A stretch of DNA of 64,000 bases from a virus: IMG/VR virus record IMGVR_UViG_3300024346_000012. The stretch is one strand, 5' to 3'. Within the stretch, counting starts at the first letter, position 1, and each line of letters begins with the position of its first letter. The notes under the pieces are model-generated. The model made no database searches and was not told the origin of the DNA. It was given only the letters and a program-made list of their open reading frames with translations. The position numbers and the translations under genes were made by a program. This document shows positions 1 through 23,322 of this stretch, piece after piece.

Positions 1-134
1 GCAGTTTTAAGTTTTACATTATTCTCTCTTAAAGTCCCTATTGTAGCTTCTGACCAGATATAATAGTTATATCCGCCATAACCGACGCCGCTTAATAAGC
101 TTACTACAATAATAATTAAATATAATTTAGCCAT
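1..134 (-). CDS. Partial (runs off window) N-terminally membrane-anchored protein, possible inner spanin
   Basis: Manual translation MAKLYLIIIVVSLLSGVGYGGYNYYIWSEATIGTLRENNVKLK: one TM segment followed by the start of a coiled coil. Confidence 0.45.
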   Translation of the reverse strand, partial: MAKLYLIIIVVSLLSGVGYGGYNYYIWSEATIGTLRENNVKLKT

Positions 135-5841: not shown

Positions 5842-7303
5842 TCTTAGGCCCTTTCATTGGCTTTTGCTTTAAGTATTCTGCTCTAGAGATCGGAGGCCCG
5901 CCATATTCTTTCATATTAGCTACCTTTACATCTTTTAAGCGTGCACGGTCTAGCATTCTATCGTGTTTCTTTTTATCAGCTTCTTTTTCTCTACTTATCT
6001 TATCTTTAGCTGCTGTAGTGGCTAAAGATTCACCAAACATTTTTCTAAATTTTAGAGTGTGTTTTGAAGTTTTTGTTTTAGCTGTGGCGTCACCTGCTGC
6101 AGGTTTGTATGCACCTGGATCTTTATCAGACATATTAGCTTGTTTTTTAAACTGCCTGTCTCTAGATATTTTTTGAGCTTTACTCAAACCTACATGATAT
6201 TTTTTAGGCTGAGAACCTGGCCGATCTTTTATATCTTGGTCTTGAGACTCTTTTGGTACGCAATTAGGAACCATCTTGTTTCCCTTCTTCTTCGTACCAA
6301 TTTGTTTATGAGTATCCCAACAAGCTTCGTCGGCTTGGCCTGGAGTCATTGCTTTTGCTTTGGTTACAGACTCGGGTGTCCCCCAATCTGGCTGACGTTC
6401 TTCACTAATCATATTTCTGTACGGACCATCTTCGGGTGTCGCGCCAAAATCTGCAGTAGCGTGTTTAGGGGGAATATCGTTCGGGTTAACTTTAGATACG
6501 TCATTTAACCAACATCTCCAGGTCTCACCCTTCGATTCGATGATTAAATAATTAGTGCCAAGATACTTAATATTTCCAACAATACCGTTTCTTGTCATTA
6601 CCACTTCTTCGCCAGTTTTGAATATATCATCTCTAAGATATGCTTCTCTTATGTCTGATACAGGATCTAACTGAATATGGTTTTTAAACTCTTTGGCCTC
6701 TTTTAAGCCCATCCCTTTACGTACATCATTAAATAACTTTTTAGCTTCTGGATTAGACATAGCCTTTGGAAGACCTTGCGCAAATGAAACAAAATCATCT
6801 TCACTTGCTGCATGCCTTTGCTTAGTAGCAGAAGCGCCTTCTGCCCCTTCAGCGTCTGGATCTCTTTGTCCGGCCGATACTATATCAATTTTATTGAAGT
6901 TATAAAAACCATGCCTACCCTTTTTACCGTTATACTTATTTAATAGTATATCAAATTCTGAAAGTCTATCTGCGCCAACGACGACAGAAACATTACGGTA
7001 GCCTTCATCATAAAGTGTTGCCAAAACATCAATAATAGTTTTTACTTTTTTATTTGATACAATAGATCTAGCATGCTTAGGAAACATTTTTCTAGCATGT
7101 TTTATTTTATCTTTATATTGTAATGGGTTTTTTTTCTTATCTTGCGATTGAGATACATACACACGATAAGGACTACGTCCTGCTTTCGAGGCAAGAGCAT
7201 CTAGTAATTTTCCATGGCCAATAGTAGGAGGATTCATTCTACCAAACGTAAAATAAATAGACTTTTCTTCTTCAACAAGAAATTGGCTAAACTTATTAAT
7301 CAT
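5834..7303 (-). CDS. HIGH-superfamily nucleotidyltransferase (phage cytidylyltransferase-like) with C-terminal accessory modules
   Basis: FTFGRMNPPTIGH, KNPL, VVVGADR and SAT motifs; MINKFSQFLVEE start. Confidence 0.75.
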   Translation of the reverse strand: MINKFSQFLVEEEKSIYFTFGRMNPPTIGHGKLLDALASKAGRSPYRVYVSQSQDKKKNPLQYKDKIKHARKMFPKHARSIVSNKKVKTIIDVLATLYDEGYRNVSVVVGADRLSEFDILLNKYNGKKGRHGFYNFNKIDIVSAGQRDPDAEGAEGASATKQRHAASEDDFVSFAQGLPKAMSNPEAKKLFNDVRKGMGLKEAKEFKNHIQLDPVSDIREAYLRDDIFKTGEEVVMTRNGIVGNIKYLGTNYLIIESKGETWRCWLNDVSKVNPNDIPPKHATADFGATPEDGPYRNMISEERQPDWGTPESVTKAKAMTPGQADEACWDTHKQIGTKKKGNKMVPNCVPKESQDQDIKDRPGSQPKKYHVGLSKAQKISRDRQFKKQANMSDKDPGAYKPAAGDATAKTKTSKHTLKFRKMFGESLATTAAKDKISREKEADKKKHDRMLDRARLKDVKVANMKEYGGPPISRAEYLKQKPMKGPKNG

Positions 7304-12302: not shown

Positions 12303-12554
12303 ATGTGTACGCCATTCGTTCGTAAAGAAGCCAATCGACTTAACTGGCTAGTTAAGGGGCAACTAATCAACATAAACGAATCAGACGCCACTGTTGAACA
12401 GTTATACGATTCATATTTTAAAAGACTTTGGAATAACACTGAAAGAAGCGAATACGGTTCGATCGGATTTGAAACAGCTTACAAGCAACGAGAAGTAGAA
12501 GTATATAATAGAGAAATAACTAAGGTTGCTGTATTAGGTGGTCACTATGACTAG
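12303..12554 (+). CDS. Hypothetical protein (only convincing plus-strand gene)
   Basis: AAAGGAG RBS before the ATG; fills an otherwise empty gap. Confidence 0.7.
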   Translation: MCTPFVRKEANRLNWLVKGQLININESDATVEQLYDSYFKRLWNNTERSEYGSIGFETAYKQREVEVYNREITKVAVLGGHYD

Positions 12555-12817
12555 CCTTCTGACCATTCATCTCCAGGACTTGTTCCAGTAATAGCATTGC
12601 CGAATTCTGCAGCGGCCCATGTCATTACTAAAATAGCAAGTAATCCAATAAAAACCCATTTCATTTTCATGTCATCGACTATCATCTTAATGCCGATCAT
12701 TTCATTACCTAAAACTCGGAATTGAAGTTCCATTTTACCTTCTGGTGTATCTTCATCTCTAATTGCATGCGGCGCTTTAGCTACTAGTTTAGCTTTAACT
12801 TTTTCTTCTTCGGCCAT
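12551..12817 (-). CDS. Small single-TM membrane protein
   Basis: WVFIGLLAILVMTWAAA helix; last gene of the exported-protein operon. Confidence 0.65.
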   Translation of the reverse strand: MAEEEKVKAKLVAKAPHAIRDEDTPEGKMELQFRVLGNEMIGIKMIVDDMKMKWVFIGLLAILVMTWAAAEFGNAITGTSPGDEWSEG

Positions 12818-12828
12818 TTAGATCTCCG

Positions 12829-13407
12829 TTAGTTTGCTAGTGGATTATTTAGGGCTCTTTGTAATTTATCATTTAATAGAGTATCAAGCTCTCTCATGTC
12901 TCTCTCGATCATCGCTCGCAGTGATTCTAAGTCGCGTTCTACTTTAGTTTCTAGATCGTTCATACGACTGTTATTTGAGTTTCTTAAACTATTCGCCTTT
13001 GTGTCATAATCATTAGATAATGCGTCTCGCTTGTTTTCAAAGCGCTCTTCTGCATTCTGTACAATCTCTCTTGTCGTTTGCTCGCTTTCCCGCAACTCAT
13101 CTTCTGTGCGATCCACTTGCTTTTCAATACCAAGTATATCATCTCTAAGACCAGTTTTAATATCACGAGTATATTCAATGGCCTCGTTAATACGAACCAT
13201 ATTTTCTTCCATTCTAAGAATAACTTTTTCGTTTTCGGCTGCAATAGAATCTACATCAATATTTTCTACAATCTCTTTCATATTTCTATAATCATTGTAG
13301 AACTCAAAGCCTCCCCAAGCTGCGCCACCTAACGTTGATAGCGCCGTAAGAACAGCAAACATCTTGCCGCCTTTAAACTTAACTCCTCCAAATTCTAGCT
13401 CTGACAT
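12829..13407 (-). CDS. Membrane-anchored long coiled-coil protein
   Basis: N-terminal TM helix followed by a long heptad region. Confidence 0.7.
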   Translation of the reverse strand: MSELEFGGVKFKGGKMFAVLTALSTLGGAAWGGFEFYNDYRNMKEIVENIDVDSIAAENEKVILRMEENMVRINEAIEYTRDIKTGLRDDILGIEKQVDRTEDELRESEQTTREIVQNAEERFENKRDALSNDYDTKANSLRNSNNSRMNDLETKVERDLESLRAMIERDMRELDTLLNDKLQRALNNPLAN

Positions 13408-13417
13408 TTATTAACTC

Positions 13418-13843
13418 CTAGTTCTCAAATGTGCTTGCTTCAGAATTGTTTAAACGTCTTAACGCTTCCAGTTCTTGTTGCAGCTTTAGCACTTCTAATC
13501 TTTTTTTTCTCAGCTCTAATTGATACAAGCTGTTACAATTAATTCTTTCTTTAGGCTTATCGAGTGGTATAACTATTCTAGCATATACTCCAACATCCTT
13601 TTCAGTGTTACCGTAATCTGGAGAGTTGAATGGACTACTATAGTTATCGATAACGCCTGTTATACCAAACTCAAAATTTGTGGCGCCGCCAATAGAATTT
13701 GAGCAGTTTAAGTCTCCAGCTTTGATGCTATCACTACCATATGAGACAGAAGCTCCAGGTAGTGTTAGTCCAATCCCACTGTTATCTGCTAATGCTGTAA
13801 TAGGAAACATTGATAAGGTTAATAATATAATACACTTTTTCAT
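13418..13843 (-). CDS. Exported protein with Cys-flanked beta-hairpin and C-terminal coiled coil
   Basis: Signal peptide ending ALA; amphipathic strands NFEFGITG and VGVYARIVIPL. Confidence 0.65.
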   Translation of the reverse strand: MKKCIILLTLSMFPITALADNSGIGLTLPGASVSYGSDSIKAGDLNCSNSIGGATNFEFGITGVIDNYSSPFNSPDYGNTEKDVGVYARIVIPLDKPKERINCNSLYQLELRKKRLEVLKLQQELEALRRLNNSEASTFEN

Positions 13844-14247
13844 TCACCTAGCCTTTTTATCTTTGAGCAAATCCTAGAAGACACTATAGTTCGCGTTTCA
13901 TATGACCTACGCAGTTTCGATTTAGAGCATATATACCTTACTTTTTTTCTATCAATATTACGTATAAACAGCTCGTTTGTTACTGTGCTTAAAAAGGGGA
14001 CTGGAAAGATTTTGTATGTAGAAACAAACGGTATTGATTCCCAATCTTCTGTAAATACCCCAATTTCATAATACTCAACTTCTGGTCTTTTATTGAATAT
14101 TGTTACCTTTGTTTTATATAGCCCTTGTATATGAGATGGTTCCAATTTTGGGTATGTTGGAACCATCTCATGGGCCTTAACACTTAAAGCGCATGTTAAA
14201 AAAATAGCTATAAAGACTGAGAATAAACCATAACGTAGCATAGTCAT
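13840..14247 (-). CDS. Exported fimbrial chaperone-like (PapD-N-like single domain) protein
   Basis: Signal peptide VKA/HEMVPTY; VTIFN and YEIGV strand pattern; adjacent to the pilin-like gene. Confidence 0.45.
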   Translation of the reverse strand: MTMLRYGLFSVFIAIFLTCALSVKAHEMVPTYPKLEPSHIQGLYKTKVTIFNKRPEVEYYEIGVFTEDWESIPFVSTYKIFPVPFLSTVTNELFIRNIDRKKVRYICSKSKLRRSYETRTIVSSRICSKIKRLGE

Positions 14248-14250
14248 TTC

Positions 14251-14775
14251 CTACTTTGCAATACACTCAGCTTCTACTAATGCAGTGTAGTTTCCGCCGG
14301 GAAATGCTCTTGAACCTCCAAGAGTAGCTTTTGACTCTGTTTCAAACCATGTAGAACCAACAACAGTTAGGTCATACTTATCTACCATTCCTAGTTCCTG
14401 CTTACCAGTTTCGTACCCACTCATTCCTGTCGCATCTGATAGCGTTTTAACAGTTGTATCTCCAGTCCAAGTTACAGTGTCAGGTAAAGTTGGGCTGTTT
14501 GAAAATGACGATGGTGCAGTAATATTAACATAATATGAATCGGCCAGTGTTACATCAACGCGAATTACAGCGTTGTTCCCACCAGCTGTTGCGGCTGTAT
14601 TTAATTCATACGCATTAGGGTTGCCGTATGTTCCTGCGGTATCTGCTTGAATTACACAACGCGATTGAACAGTGCCGTTAATAGGAACTGATCCTTCTTG
14701 TTGTGCTAAAGCCTGACTTGCCACAACCATAGTAGATAGTGCAAACAGACTAGTCTTAATTTTAAACATATTCAT
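14251..14775 (-). CDS. Exported chaperone-usher pilin-like subunit
   Basis: Signal peptide ALA/QQ; N-terminal GSVPINGTVQSRCVI; C-terminal PGGNYTALVEAEC. Confidence 0.55.
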   Translation of the reverse strand: MNMFKIKTSLFALSTMVVASQALAQQEGSVPINGTVQSRCVIQADTAGTYGNPNAYELNTAATAGGNNAVIRVDVTLADSYYVNITAPSSFSNSPTLPDTVTWTGDTTVKTLSDATGMSGYETGKQELGMVDKYDLTVVGSTWFETESKATLGGSRAFPGGNYTALVEAECIAK

Positions 14776-14786
14776 ATTATGTTTCC

Positions 14787-15695
14787 TTAGTTCTCTTCGT
14801 TTATTTGATATTGCATCTCAACCATCTGGTTGTGCAATAACTGTTGGGCTAGTCCATTACGTAATCCATTCTTTGAGTCTGGCAACTTTGAATCTGCCAG
14901 TACCACGCTATCTTTATATTCTCCGCCTGGTATTTTCATTACTAGATATGTCTTATTTATCTCGTTTTGCATATTGTTATTCATTTGTTCTATTATAGAA
15001 TTCTCAGCTAAAAGTTGAGAAGCTTGCAGATCTGACAAAACCTTTTCAAGTCTGTACCTTCTTTTACGCTCTTCCTCTTCTTCTTCATCTTCTTCTTTTG
15101 CTTTAGCCTTATTTATCTTATCTTGTTCGATTGTTTTATTTCGTTCCATGTTAACATTATCGTCATCGAATACATCATAAACATCTTCTAAGCCAACTTC
15201 TGGTATGTCAGGGATTGGCTCTACATATCCTGGGCAGTTAGTATTAAACTGCGGATTAAAACAAGGATCGACTCTATACGTATATACTATACTTGCATCG
15301 TATACTGATCCGTTGCCATCTACATCTATGCTTCCCTCTCCCCATAATGCTCTGGGTAAATTGCCTACTGGAACTGCTTTACTAATTCCAGTACCGGCTA
15401 CTGATCCTGGTTTCCACTCGTCAGTCTCTCTAAAAATATAACCAGTGGCATTAGCATTTTCATTCTGCACATGTACTGTTACCCATTCACCAGTTTCTTT
15501 CTGTATCTTATAACTGTATATTACATTCTGTATATCTAATCCAGATGGATCAGGCAATATGTTTGGCATAGACCAAGCGAGAGATTGGTCCGTTATAGCA
15601 TTTCCAGTATACCCAAAGTACGGAGCAATACTTTCAGAGTAAGAGTAAGAGGGCGATAATACCAGCGCTAACGGCAGGAGCAGCTTTTTCAGCAT
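14787..15695 (-). CDS. Exported protein with beta-rich domain, C-x8-CPGY motif and acidic helical tail
   Basis: Signal peptide MLKKLLLPLALVL; DPCFNPQFNTNCPGY. Confidence 0.65.
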   Translation of the reverse strand: MLKKLLLPLALVLSPSYSYSESIAPYFGYTGNAITDQSLAWSMPNILPDPSGLDIQNVIYSYKIQKETGEWVTVHVQNENANATGYIFRETDEWKPGSVAGTGISKAVPVGNLPRALWGEGSIDVDGNGSVYDASIVYTYRVDPCFNPQFNTNCPGYVEPIPDIPEVGLEDVYDVFDDDNVNMERNKTIEQDKINKAKAKEEDEEEEEERKRRYRLEKVLSDLQASQLLAENSIIEQMNNNMQNEINKTYLVMKIPGGEYKDSVVLADSKLPDSKNGLRNGLAQQLLHNQMVEMQYQINEEN

Positions 15696-16224
15696 CTATA
15701 GGTCCCATCAAATTAAGTTCTTTTTCAGTTTCTTCAACGTGAGTTTCCCAACCCAACTTAGCAGCATCACCGATTAAACCATTATACGGGCATGGCGTAC
15801 CAGCATTCATCATTGCCTTAAACACGTTTTCATCTTGACACATAGTTGATACCGCAGCCACTTTCATTCCCATATCATATAAGACTTTTGCATTTTTTAA
15901 TCTTTTACAATTCTCTTCAGTATAAGTGCCTCCTGCAGATATGCCTAAAATCTGAGTTTGTACTGAAGCAGAAGCTCCGATAGTACACAGATCAGAATTA
16001 TTACCTGCACTAAATTGTGGCGCAATCGCAGAAGGAGGAGGTTGTTTTATGGTTGTGGTCATTTGACCATCAGTTGTTATATTGGAATCAGTCCCTGATA
16101 ATGTGCAGACATACCCGACAGGACATTCTGCTGCATCTTGGGCTTTAACCTGAATAGCAACTATCAATAGCGTAAACAAACTTAATGCCATTAACAAAAA
16201 TAATCTATGCAACTTTTTATACAT
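15634..16224 (-). CDS. Exported Cys-rich protein with Cys-flanked beta-hairpin and hydrophobic C-tail
   Basis: Signal peptide; PPPSAIAP; CTIGASASVQTQILGISAGGTYTEENC; AGTPCP. Confidence 0.65.
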   Translation of the reverse strand: MYKKLHRLFLLMALSLFTLLIVAIQVKAQDAAECPVGYVCTLSGTDSNITTDGQMTTTIKQPPPSAIAPQFSAGNNSDLCTIGASASVQTQILGISAGGTYTEENCKRLKNAKVLYDMGMKVAAVSTMCQDENVFKAMMNAGTPCPYNGLIGDAAKLGWETHVEETEKELNLMGPIDAEKAAPAVSAGIIALLLLL

Positions 16225-16256
16225 TTAAATACCACCAATCATTGTAAGTCATACAG

Positions 16257-16264
16257 TATTTATA
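16257..16264 (-). promoter_or_regulatory. T4-type late promoter of the exported-protein operon
   Basis: Exact TATAAATA about 30 nt upstream of 16224. Confidence 0.8.
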
Positions 16265-16268
16265 TACC

Positions 16269-16625
16269 TTATAGATCTTCTTTTGTTTTTATTTTATCCC
16301 ACGGCTGAGGTCCAGCATATGGCTCCCACTCTGCTCCAGCAATAATTAAGCATGACATTGGAGGCTTGTCTCCATTGGGAAAAGATAAGACAACAGCTAA
16401 AGTACCAGTGTCTTGGTTTAAGAATATTCCAGCTTCGGAAGTAAATGTCTTTCCATTTTTAGCAGATATTGTACCTGTTCCACTAAGCAATAAAGAGTTC
16501 TTATACTGTATCATTATTCTCATTACTTCGGGCGATGGATCGCATGGCACATTTATTTGTAACATATCAGCGTGCGCTGGAGCACAAGCAGTGATGAATC
16601 CTAAGGCCAATAATAGTTTTTTCAT
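16269..16625 (-). CDS. Exported hypothetical protein
   Basis: Likely start MKKLLLALG after AAAGGA RBS; AHA/D signal cleavage site; paired Cys. Confidence 0.65.
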   Translation of the reverse strand: MKKLLLALGFITACAPAHADMLQINVPCDPSPEVMRIMIQYKNSLLLSGTGTISAKNGKTFTSEAGIFLNQDTGTLAVVLSFPNGDKPPMSCLIIAGAEWEPYAGPQPWDKIKTKEDL

Positions 16626-16643
16626 AGTATAGTCCTTTCTCAT

Positions 16644-16710: not shown

Positions 16711-17103
16711 TCAGAAGGCGAAAGTAGCACCTACTTTAGTAGCTACATTGTCTGATGCGTCAAAATCCCAAGTTGTTTCACCGAACAACTCAAAGCCGCC
16801 AAACACTTCATATGTGGCACCAAGATTGACTTTTGGGTCGTCAAACGCGTTGCTCAATTGAAACTCTTCATTGTTATAAACTGGCAAGTCCATATCAGCT
16901 GACAAGCCAATACCGAACATTGAATAACCGATTTCAGGAGTTACCTTTACACCGAAATCATCTACTGCGTTACCTGCAGCATCGTTAATTGTGTATGCTG
17001 CTTCTGATGTTACACCCCAAGTGATGCCTGTTCCACCGATCTCATTGGCTGAGACTGATGTTGCCGTTACTAAAGCGGCTGCTGCGATTGCTGCGATTTT
17101 CAT
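16711..17103 (-). CDS. Small outer-membrane beta-barrel protein
   Basis: Signal peptide; alternating amphipathic strands; C-terminal KVGATFAF beta-signal ending in Phe. Confidence 0.75.
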   Translation of the reverse strand: MKIAAIAAAALVTATSVSANEIGGTGITWGVTSEAAYTINDAAGNAVDDFGVKVTPEIGYSMFGIGLSADMDLPVYNNEEFQLSNAFDDPKVNLGATYEVFGGFELFGETTWDFDASDNVATKVGATFAF

Positions 17104-17756: not shown

Positions 17757-17926
17757 AATTCAAGCTTCTCCATTATATTTATTCTTTGTTCTTCACTATA
17801 AGAAGACCACTCAGTGATCTCCTGAGAAGTGCGTTTACACCCTATGCACGTACCAGTAAATGCATCAATTTTACATATCTGAGTACAAGGACTAGATGCT
17901 TTTACTAATCCCAAGTGCCGTCCCAC
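17741..17926 (-). CDS. DUF1289 family small Cys protein
   Basis: SPCTQIC and CIGCKRT-x2-EI-x2-W motifs. Confidence 0.8.
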   Translation of the reverse strand: MGRHLGLVKASSPCTQICKIDAFTGTCIGCKRTSQEITEWSSYSEEQRINIMEKLELWQKK

Positions 17927-18390
17927 ACATAAAACACGTGTTTATCAATTATTTTACTTACTTCCATTTGATCTGCCCACACCGGATTCACATACGTAGC
18001 GTGATAAAATGTAGCTCCCTTTGTAGGATCATCTACGTTTCCTATCATCACATCTCTGGCAATAGCCCGAGCTTGCTTCCACGATTTGTTTTCTTTGGGC
18101 GTCTGATCTTTAATCATAAACGTCCAACTAAACTGCTTTGGTTGGTAGACTACATCGCATATACTATTAGGCCATTCCTTATGCTCTACTCTATTCATGG
18201 TAACATGGGCAACAGCGATTTGGCCTTCAATGACCTCGCCGCGAGCCTCGTGATATATATTCATCGCCAAACAATTTTGGCTTTTAGGATCTATATCGGG
18301 TTGACCACCCATAGAAAGAGTTATGACAAGTGCCCCAGTTAGTACTGACATAGTTAATAATCCGCTTGTTATGTTTAAAGTTCTTGACAT
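17905..18390 (-). CDS. Cell wall hydrolase (SleB/Hydrolase_2)
   Basis: CLAMNIYHEARGE, VAHVTMNRV, QFSW, GATFYHA and HVFY motifs; N-terminal TM. Confidence 0.9.
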   Translation of the reverse strand: MSRTLNITSGLLTMSVLTGALVITLSMGGQPDIDPKSQNCLAMNIYHEARGEVIEGQIAVAHVTMNRVEHKEWPNSICDVVYQPKQFSWTFMIKDQTPKENKSWKQARAIARDVMIGNVDDPTKGATFYHATYVNPVWADQMEVSKIIDKHVFYVWDGTWD

Positions 18391-21895: not shown

Positions 21896-21951
21896 CGAGT
21901 AGGACTTTCGCCCTACTCGTTTATTATACACTATTTTTTCATGATTGTAAA
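21896..21951 (-). promoter_or_regulatory. Promoter TTTACA-N17-TATAAT followed by a 5' leader hairpin with GAAA loop
   Basis: Near-consensus boxes at 21946-21951 and 21923-21928; hairpin CGAGTAGGGC-GAAA-GTCCTACTCG. Confidence 0.75.
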
Positions 21952-23322
21952 ATAAATAATTCCACCGAGTGCGGCACCAATTACCCATCCGAATCCTGAT
22001 AAGAAGCCAAGAACTGGCAACCATACCGTTCCAAGAGAGAACGCTGCAGGCAATGCCCAAGCTGCGAGTGCTTTCTTGTTCCAACCATTGTCATAATAGT
22101 ATTCACCATCTTCAGATGCATTAAATAGTTCATCAATATCTAGTGCTTCTTTCTTGATCATATAGTGATCGACCATCATAATACCATAGATCGGAGCGAG
22201 TACAGCGCCAAAGGTATTTACAAAATTGAAGATACCCATTTGACTTACTACTGAAACCCAAAGACCACCAATTACGAGAGCAAATGCCGATGTAATCAAA
22301 CCACCAAGTCTAAAGTCGATCTTAGCTGGTGCTAGATTGGCAAGATCATAAGCAGGTGGAATAAAGTTAGCCACCATATTAATGCCAACAGTCGCAAAGA
22401 AGAACGCGATAGCAGCTACAATAGTAAGTGGTAAAGATCCGACAGCTGCCACAATATCAGTAGGATTTGTCATTGGTTCACCGAAGACTACAATAGTACC
22501 AGCAGTAACTACTAAAGCGATTAACGAAAAGAAAGCAATGTTTAATGGCAAGCCAAGTAGATTGCCCTTTCTCATTTCCTTTTGTGATTTTACAAATCTA
22601 GAGAAATCACCGTAGTTAATTACAACAGCCGCAAAGTATGCAATCATTGTACCAACTACTGCGAACCACGCACTGAGTGCTGTTCCACTATAATCACCTA
22701 CGCCTTGAAAGATAGTACCTACTTCTGTCATGAGTCCTGATCCGGCCGCATTCCAAATAAGAAGAGCAAGAACAATCATAACAGCATATACAAACACTCC
22801 CGCAAAATTTAAGAACTTAGCGATAGTATCAATGCCTTTCATAAACAAGAAGATCTGAAAACCCCACACAATTAAGAACGATACCCAATCAATGCCAGTC
22901 ATACCAAGCCACATACTCGATGGCTCAATTCCTAAAAGAGATTTAATTAAGAGAGACAAAGCTGTTGATGCAAAATAAGTTTGCGCGCCATACCAGAAGA
23001 TGGCTACAACAGCTCGTAATACAGCCGGAAAGTTAGCGCCCTTTACACCCATACTCGCTCGAGCCATAACTGGAAATGGAATGCCATGCTGTACAGAAGG
23101 TTTACCCATTAGGTTTACCAGCACCATAACAAAAAGTCCTGCTACCAAAATAGCAGAAAAGACAGACCAGCCAGAAAGGCCATATGATAAGAATAGTGAT
23201 GCTGCTAAAGTATATCCAAAGAGTGATTGAATATCGTTAGACCATACATTGAAAATTTCAAACCAACCCCATGTTTTTTTATCCTCGGTTACAGGGCCGA
23301 GGTCTTCATTATGAAGTTCCAT
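21931..23322 (-). CDS. NCS1 family nucleobase:cation symporter
   Basis: About 12 TM helices; GIPFPVMARASMG, WYGAQT, NYGDFSRF and NMVANF motifs. Confidence 0.92.
   Translation of the reverse strand: MELHNEDLGPVTEDKKTWGWFEIFNVWSNDIQSLFGYTLAASLFLSYGLSGWSVFSAILVAGLFVMVLVNLMGKPSVQHGIPFPVMARASMGVKGANFPAVLRAVVAIFWYGAQTYFASTALSLLIKSLLGIEPSSMWLGMTGIDWVSFLIVWGFQIFLFMKGIDTIAKFLNFAGVFVYAVMIVLALLIWNAAGSGLMTEVGTIFQGVGDYSGTALSAWFAVVGTMIAYFAAVVINYGDFSRFVKSQKEMRKGNLLGLPLNIAFFSLIALVVTAGTIVVFGEPMTNPTDIVAAVGSLPLTIVAAIAFFFATVGINMVANFIPPAYDLANLAPAKIDFRLGGLITSAFALVIGGLWVSVVSQMGIFNFVNTFGAVLAPIYGIMMVDHYMIKKEALDIDELFNASEDGEYYYDNGWNKKALAAWALPAAFSLGTVWLPVLGFLSGFGWVIGAALGGIIYFTIMKK

Follow-up and report, generated by a model that had tools for sequence, protein, structure and literature searches.

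A conserved block of exported proteins in a marine T4-like phage and its candidate usher-less chaperone-subunit module

The 64,000-nucleotide (nt) stretch of DNA analysed here, IMG/VR virus record IMGVR_UViG_3300024346_000012 (the window, at its full length), comes from a marine T4-like myophage and encodes a T4-type portal, sheath and large terminase together with a gp43-like DNA polymerase, UvsW and a replicative helicase. The portal shares 67% identity with that of Phage C48C1 and approximately 52% with those of Pelagibacter phage HTVC008M, the Melnitz phages and cyanophages. All genes of the window lie on the minus strand, with the head and tail genes at 49-64 kb, far from the element under study, a cassette of seven open reading frames (ORFs) at 12551-16224 (-). 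These are designated G1 to G7 in transcription order, are spaced by 3-11 nt or overlap (by 62 nt in the case of G1 and G2 as called), and six of them are assigned below to two modules, A and B:

16257-16264 (-): T4-type late promoter motif TATAAATA, an exact octamer, about 33 nt upstream of the G1 start
15634-16224 (-): G1, exported protein of 196 amino acids (aa), module A; matches phrog_20531
14787-15695 (-): G2, exported protein of 302 aa, module A; characterised from its alignment
14251-14775 (-): G3, exported β-sandwich subunit of 174 aa, module B; from alignment and structural model
13840-14247 (-): G4, exported protein of 135 aa modelled as a single PapD-like immunoglobulin (Ig) domain, module B; predicted chaperone-like partner of G3
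13418-13843 (-): G5, exported protein of 141 aa, module B; matches phrog_37374
12829-13407 (-): G6, 192 aa, N-terminal membrane segment followed by a coiled coil, module A; from alignment
12551-12817 (-): G7, 88 aa, one membrane segment (residues 52-73) by hydrophobicity

An earlier note, made from the letters of this DNA, had described an exact late promoter ahead of seven tightly packed genes, and both the octamer and the ORFs are indeed present at the above positions. Reading the octamer as a late promoter is sensible because the phage is T4-like; further, the motif recurs in relatives, lying no more than 150 nt upstream of G1 in 61 of the 95 related loci used for this count, as against 0.014 expected. 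The five signal peptides and two transmembrane anchors claimed for the encoded proteins were likewise recovered by a check based on simple hydrophobicity and the -3/-1 rule rather than SignalP: each of G1-G5 displays a basic n-region, a hydrophobic core and an AXA-type site, while G6 and G7 carry membrane segments, that at the N-terminus of G6 being Gly/Ala-rich and weakly hydrophobic. G1 has an additional hydrophobic tail at its C-terminus, and no lipobox was found in G1-G5 or G7. The mature forms of G1-G5 each contain an even number of cysteines, which are invariant in alignments of 13-14 homologues, a pattern that fits export to an oxidising compartment.

Across a synteny set of 108 IMG/VR loci, G1-G5 are adjacent and keep their order in every locus that is not cut. 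G1-G6 are contiguous in 59 of these loci and a further 29 have an insert between G5 and G6, with the remainder being cut by contig ends. This arrangement is well beyond chance. G7, in contrast, has homologues in only two loci, where they lie elsewhere, on the opposite strand, adjoining a SleB-type endolysin; it is outside the conserved block and is possibly a holin- or antiholin-like protein. Hence, the co-conservation proposed for the unit stands for G1-G6 and falls for G7. The view of all seven genes as a single operon system has to be given up, as the block comprises two independent conserved modules, G1-G2-G6 (A) and G3-G4-G5 (B), plus the unconserved G7. The separation of the modules is directly visible on one Joint Genome Institute (JGI) contig (L036), where the order is G1-G2-(51 aa)-G6-G3-G4-G5. 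The usual inserts between G5 and G6, or just downstream, encode a staphylococcal nuclease (SNase)-family nuclease and a class 3 lipase (L009 3807-4337, L058 6848-7672 and about 30 other loci), both lacking an evident signal peptide, and the neighbourhood of the cassette as a whole is variable, with gain and loss of many unrelated genes. Relatives among clusters at 90% identity number more than 950 for G3 and more than 3,200 for G4; nearly all derive from marine metagenomes, on phage-sized contigs of up to approximately 220 kb.

The structural model of G4 (mean predicted local distance difference test score, pLDDT, 88.5) is a single seven-stranded Ig domain. In Foldseek searches of the PDB the top ranks are occupied almost entirely by N-terminal domains of the chaperones of chaperone-usher systems, with DraB as the best match (E 8.9e-5) followed by PapD, SfaE, FimC, FaeE, SafB and Caf1M (TMq 0.45-0.58). 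VIA-align comparably places FimC at Z 10.7 (102 aligned residues, root-mean-square deviation 3.4), SafB at 10.5, YadV at 10.2 and CsuC at 9.2, with ties from major sperm protein (MSP) domains, members of this same class of fold (Z 10.6), and one glycosidase Ig domain (Z 10.8). The length of G4 is confined to 115-135 aa in 14 phage homologues and 14 bacterial or Vibrio-phage homologues, giving a mature protein of about 110 aa, and the model shows one domain rather than a two-domain boomerang with a C-terminal domain. The identification of G4 as a single-domain fimbrial chaperone, suggested from its sequence in the earlier note, is thereby supported at the level of the predicted fold. At the sequence level G4 returned no Pfam match at E up to 1 (nor did its Vibrio-phage and L036 homologues at E up to 10), no NCBIfam match and no PDB profile match.

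The model of G3 (pLDDT 82.7) is a β-sandwich spanning residues 40-174, preceded by a conserved mature N-terminus (26-39) that is modelled with low confidence and left unpacked. This extension has the conserved pattern I32-x-G34-x-V36...C40, with alternating hydrophobic residues and an invariant glycine, and its motif SVPINGTVQSRC resembles the mature N-terminus of FimG, i.e., its donor strand, ADVTITVNGKVVAKPC as read from E. coli K-12. At the other end of the protein lies a conserved C-terminal strand, GGNYTALVEAEC171. Fourteen members of the G3 family gave no Pfam match at E up to 10, tblastn with G3 against cultured phages was empty, and an exhaustive profile search recovered a closed family of 111 clusters without a tie to bacterial fimbrial families. 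The nearest named cluster in the Atlas is DUF4402, with a template modelling (TM) score of 0.55; a literature search on DUF4402 and on usher-less systems returned nothing relevant. Pfam, NCBIfam and PDB sequence and profile searches were empty for all of G1-G5.

When mature G3 and mature G4 were modelled as a complex in three runs, using our own alignments, the interaction score ipSAE (interaction prediction score from aligned errors) was 0.84, 0.84 and 0.82 as against 0.00 for the best control, with at least 96% of contacts shared between runs and a partner pLDDT of 88. Among solved complexes, 58 of 80 attain the pass mark applied, and among mismatched pairs 2 of 110 do so, counts that are rough since our own alignments were used. 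The predicted interface comprises 116-119 contacts and is centred on the last strand of G4 (122-129), which pairs with the C-terminal strand of G3 (166-173). The G3:G4 contacts 170:125, 169:124, 168:123 and 167:122 have a constant offset, so the predicted pairing is parallel. Contributions also come from the first strand of G3 (37-44), the N-terminal strand of G4 (26-32) and G4 K53/R54. In PapD-PapK and FimC-FimH, a parallel chaperone G1 strand lying beside the F strand of the subunit is the signature of donor-strand complementation, and the donor-strand-like docking of a pilin and a chaperone that had been put forward for this pair is thus what the multimer model displays. In PapD, Arg8 and Lys112 are the basic residues that hold the C-terminal carboxylate of the subunit; G4 has an invariant R54 and a conserved K/R129 in the predicted interface near G3 residues 173-174, at sequence positions other than those of Arg8 and Lys112.

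As a separate observation, the predicted mature N-terminus of G4 begins with a histidine, His26, which is invariant in all 14 T4-like homologues and lies within the predicted interface with G3. A histidine-brace copper site at this position was considered and dropped, as the Vibrio-phage homologues and several bacterial ones lack the residue.

Module B is also found beyond the T4-like phages, and G5, a β-rich domain closed by one cysteine pair and followed by a charged C-terminal helix according to its alignment, served as a guide to such occurrences. G5-like genes are present in 80 records of Vibrio T5-like phages, and Vibrio phage Morian keeps the gene order with its G3-, G4- and G5-like genes (E values of 6e-7, 8e-8 and 2e-14, respectively, by hmmsearch among the ORFs of the locus), which lie directly upstream of genes for a lipoprotein of 67 aa, the holin phrog_860 and an endolysin. 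When species genomes were scanned with G5, two true chromosomal loci emerged, in Vibrio and Allosphingosinicella, the other hits being mis-binned phage contigs; in searches within the respective groups, G5-like genes were found in 18 of the 201 Vibrionaceae genomes covered and in 4 of the 201 from Sphingomonadales. In the 13 bacterial loci that were read, every G5 gene is accompanied by a G4-like gene or a pair of them and by one to four genes for subunits, and these copies do not lie within prophages or lysis cassettes. The bacterial subunits have an N-terminal phi-x-F-x3-V-x3-C and a C-terminal G-x-Y...C, like G3; some operons additionally encode a two-domain subunit of about 300 aa, and several of the G5 homologues are fused to the peptidoglycan-binding OmpA_C domain (E 8e-22). 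Comparison by hhalign of the G4 alignment from T4-like phages with that from bacteria and Vibrio phages gave a probability of 96.8 and E 2.6e-10 over 110 columns. Such relationships emerged from comparing alignments with alignments, whereas the G3 and G4 alignments matched single bacterial sequences weakly.

The absence of an usher of about 800 aa, remarked on in the earlier note, extends from this window to its relatives. The window holds no usher-like ORF, its only ORFs of at least 500 aa encoding the DNA polymerase, an SbcC-like protein, the portal, the sheath, the terminase and one 528-aa protein without assignment; the usher family PF00577 has no match in five related phage records, one of which is 100% complete (173.5 kb). 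Similarly, none of the 13 bacterial operons includes an usher, and the ushers of those genomes are located on different contigs or at distances above 250 kb, with one genome having none at all.

Taken together, these results point to a late, envelope-targeted gene set of two modules, in which module B is the phage copy of a hitherto undescribed, usher-less bacterial chaperone-subunit system, a reading to which we assign a probability of roughly 0.55. It builds on results obtained in silico, namely the export signals, the co-conservation, the folds, the predicted G3-G4 docking and the bacterial homologues. Under this reading G4 would be a periplasmic, single-domain PapD-like chaperone that caps G3 by donor-strand complementation, and the conserved N-terminal strand of G3 could then displace the G4 strand on a neighbouring subunit to give short polymers. 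G5 would be an outer-membrane or cell-wall-associated partner that either replaces the usher or anchors the product. As to purpose, we would guess at a structure on the cell surface or in the periplasm that is built late in infection and whose function is linked to the period of lysis. A bolder version, in which module B is a new minimal proteobacterial fibre pathway that uses G5 in place of the usher and was captured by marine and Vibrio phages to build fibres on host cells late in infection, is tentative and perhaps nearer to doubtful than to probable.

The comparison with the classical chaperone-usher pathway (FimC-FimG/FimA, PapD-PapK, Caf1M-Caf1, SafB-SafA, CsuC-CsuA/B) illustrates both the appeal of this reading and its difficulties. 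Both consist of an exported subunit and an exported PapD-like chaperone; the last strand of G4 is predicted to run parallel to the C-terminal strand of G3; the N-terminus of G3 has the phi-N-G-x-V...C motif as in FimG; and, as in fimbrial operons, the bacterial relatives encode multiple subunit paralogues, among them one with two domains. However, G4 has one domain (about 110 mature residues) instead of two, there is no usher in the operon or the phage, a small G5, sometimes fused to OmpA_C, stands in the usher's place, the cysteine pair of G3 would join the first strand to the last instead of strand A to strand B, and the cassette is carried by lytic phages. Additionally, no sequence match was obtained to PapD_N, Fimbrial, SCPU or Usher.

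Several of the findings weigh against module B as a chaperone-subunit system. The docking of G4 onto G3 is a prediction, and polymerisation, a surface location, the place and role of G5, the contacts of module A and the purpose of the whole are all steps that we infer; a pore made by G1 and G5 and the ecological roles proposed in the earlier note are likewise conjectural. Membership of the known chaperone-usher families at the sequence level was not borne out, as Pfam, NCBIfam and PDB sequence searches gave no match to such families for any cassette protein. When compared with E. coli FimC by hhalign, the T4-like and the bacterial/Vibrio-phage G4 alignments gave non-significant E values of 0.19 and 0.44, with the best local match falling on the G1 strand of FimC. 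The pilin hallmarks attributed to G3 hold only in part: the FimG-like N-terminal motif and the conserved C-terminal strand are there, whereas the fold match to pilins is generic. The best VIA-align Z of G3 in the PDB is 7.4, Foldseek matches are similarly generic, and TM scores to FimF, FimG and CfaB are only 0.35-0.45, among many generic sandwiches. Moreover, the G3 monomer is already modelled as a complete sandwich, and its two cysteines are situated in the first and last strands; a disulfide between these, if formed, may leave no groove for an inserted strand. Finally, the hhalign match between G3 and the bacterial subunits (probability 89, E 2e-6) covers the N-terminal 43 columns, so that support for their homology is partial and comes from this profile match along with the shared motifs and synteny.

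Module A has a distribution of its own, recurring in phages of SAR11. G1 is composed of a Thr/Ser-rich stretch, a PPPSA motif and a very conserved Cys-rich core (residues ~60-150), and this core recurs in the Pelagibacter phages HTVC115P, HTVC023P, HTVC202P and Mosig, in Roseobacter phages and in Ralstonia phage RSP15. In G2 a β-rich N-terminal domain containing one cysteine pair is joined by an acidic linker, which varies in length, to a conserved C-terminal segment that ends ..H..MV.MQY; the protein has no Pfam, PHROG or BLAST match, and tblastn against cultured phages was also empty. The coiled coil of G6 varies in length while both ends are conserved, including an invariant C-terminal tip, KLQxALxNPLxN, as would be expected of a strut spanning the periplasm. 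The podophage HTVC115P encodes G1 (gp54), a G2-like protein (gp53) that is larger and shares the C-terminus, and a clear G6 homologue (gp49), without G3-G5, and the same layout is seen in HTVC023P (gp45, gp46, gp48) and in the myophage Mosig (00202, 00201, 00200), whose G6-like C-termini read ..DNPLAQ and ..KNPLAG, respectively. Comparisons of G6 and G2 with the HTVC023P and Mosig neighbours by hhalign failed, and the kinship of G6 is read from these shared termini. In the podophages module A is placed between the capsid and other late genes, and it neighbours an M15 peptidase in HTVC023P and a gene transfer agent (GTA)-type holin in Mosig. Megablast of the cassette region against cultured phages gave no match, and an ESM Atlas feature search with G1 and G5 returned viral hypothetical clusters only. 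Module A may form a separate envelope-spanning set in which G6, anchored in the inner membrane, extends its coiled coil across the periplasm, its invariant NPLxN tip presumably docking on G1 or G2.

The Cys-rich core of G1 was also seen in two alphaproteobacterial chromosomes (L152 8931-9881 and L153 8541-9599), in proline-rich proteins of 316-352 aa located near flagellar export ORFs that by eye resemble FliQ, FliR and FlhB; these provide no functional lead.

Alternatives to a borrowed chaperone-subunit system have to be weighed against the surroundings of the cassette, which include the following features:

3-134 (-): start of a canonical i-spanin-like gene truncated at the edge of the window, its N-terminal membrane segment preceding a coiled coil; homologous to the spanin pair of related locus L101
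17139-17394 (-): permuted transfer-messenger RNA (tmRNA) gene of alphaproteobacterial type; Rfam alpha_tmRNA 74.7 bits, tmRNA_permuted 83 bits (ARAGORN made no call anywhere in the window)
17905-18390 (-): SleB-type cell-wall hydrolase whose N-terminal segment is hydrophobic, possibly a signal-anchor-release endolysin; PF07486, E 8e-29
21931-23322 (-): cytosine/purine/uracil permease; PF02133, E 5.5e-79

G6 has the layout of an i-spanin, i.e., a membrane anchor, if weakly hydrophobic, and a coiled coil, and shares with the spanins (lambda Rz/Rz1, T4 PseT.3/PseT.2) the N-terminal membrane segment, the periplasmic coiled coil and a conserved C-terminal tip, as well as late expression as judged from the promoter. 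On this basis the whole block could be a lysis accessory, an envelope-spanning complex that aids or times the breakage of the outer membrane, with G6 acting like an i-spanin, G1, G2 and G5 as its outer-membrane partners and G3-G4 as a structural pair rather than a fibre system. The gene neighbourhoods lend this idea some substance, since module A adjoins the Mosig holin and the HTVC023P peptidase, module B of Morian sits directly ahead of the lipoprotein, holin and endolysin, G5 and G6 are often separated by an inserted class 3 lipase gene, and homologues of the SleB-type endolysin, present here at 17905-18390, lie within 5 kb of the cassette, on either side, in 24 of 95 related loci. In three phage lineages the modules thus adjoin genes for holins or endolysins, a pattern that, like the chromosomal homologues, is absent from the earlier note and that leaves a role linked to lysis in play. 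However, related locus L101 has a canonical overlapping Rz/Rz1-like pair (6216-6728 and 6541-6978, lipobox FLSGC), and a homologous i-spanin start is found at 3-134 of the window; the cassette as the phage's only spanin was rejected on these grounds, and a canonical spanin elsewhere argues against a simple spanin role for it. Unlike spanin genes, G6 contains or overlaps no lipoprotein o-spanin, no such partner is encoded inside the cassette, and five further exported proteins have no spanin counterpart. The bacterial copies of module B, moreover, lie outside prophages and lysis cassettes, and the variability of the neighbourhood, with its turnover of many unrelated genes, also counts against the idea. 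A lysis accessory is regarded as unlikely.

It is also rather improbable, in our estimation, that G3 and G4 form a stable, non-polymerising heterodimer in the periplasm or outer membrane, which together with G5 masks or alters a host receptor or another envelope component, serving superinfection exclusion or keeping progeny phage off cell debris. A precedent exists in the lipoprotein Llp of phage T5, which blocks the phage's own receptor FhuA, and the extensive predicted interface, the complete sandwich of the G3 monomer, the export of all parts as judged by the signal-peptide check and the want of an usher or other evident export pore would all suit such a complex. It would nevertheless leave the conserved N-terminal strand of G3 without a use, as this strand is idle in the heterodimer model, and it does not anticipate the fibre-operon layout of the bacterial loci, with their subunit paralogues, two-domain subunit and sometimes two chaperone-like genes. 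Further, the superinfection-exclusion genes of T4, imm and sp, are expressed early, whereas the cassette stands behind a late promoter. That the cassette proteins are instead virion parts or assembly factors, with signal-peptide-like N-termini that are not used for export, is barely credible: the late promoter, the podophage position of module A and the β-sandwich of G3, a common fold of capsid-decoration proteins, are compatible with it, but five consecutive proteins have canonical signal-peptide features and invariant cysteine pairs, homologues occur on bacterial chromosomes, some with an OmpA_C fusion, and the head and tail genes are far away.

The usher-less chaperone-subunit system proposed for this marine T4-like phage has a partial parallel in the curli (type VIII secretion) module known from the pelagimyophages HTVC008M, Mosig and Melnitz, for which roles in aggregation, exclusion and lysis timing have been suggested, roles that come into question here as well; in Melnitz its genes are just downstream of the phage tmRNA gene (PMC9004378, PMC9599517). 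Both are host-independent sets of exported fibre or pore genes in marine T4-like phages, and the present cassette likewise follows the tmRNA gene. One difference lies in the predicted mode of assembly, by strand complementation rather than amyloid nucleation. The identity of the cassette with the pelagimyophage curli module was ruled out: none of the seven proteins has a Pfam match above threshold, and hence none to CsgG, CsgF or CsgA, and CsgG (PF03783) has no match in the five related phage records searched for ushers.

The same three-gene core in Vibrio and sphingomonad chromosomes makes it look as though the phages have borrowed an undescribed route to an envelope or surface structure. The G3 and G4 families, found almost entirely on marine phage-sized contigs, carry no annotation despite being very large. 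Should the docking be true, donor-strand complementation would work with half a chaperone and without an usher, which would extend what is known of pilus-type assembly and offer a very small model system. It would also be the second case, after the pelagiphage curli genes, of abundant ocean phages giving their hosts an exported structure that those hosts lack, with a bearing on aggregation, superinfection, lysis timing and the export of particles at sea. With T5-like phages of Vibrio in culture and operons on Vibrio chromosomes, the question can be tested directly.

Certain minor observations may be added. In Sphingomonadales genome G400 (L143, C2:568400-580800) the module B trio immediately precedes a putative tol-pal cluster and shares its direction, an identification of the cluster made from TolB-sized and Pal-like ORFs judged by their size and termini. 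Phage contigs carrying the cassette (L116-L122) are binned in metagenome-assembled genomes labelled Rhodobacteraceae, Methanobacteriota, Polaribacter, Saprospiraceae and Melainabacteria, which probably reflects contamination rather than hosts. Between the tmRNA gene and the late promoter of the window lie genes for two more exported proteins (16269-16643 and 16711-17103, both on the minus strand), kept only in the closest relatives: one of 124 aa with a possible lipobox (ITAC) and one of 130 aa that ends in Phe and resembles a small outer-membrane protein.

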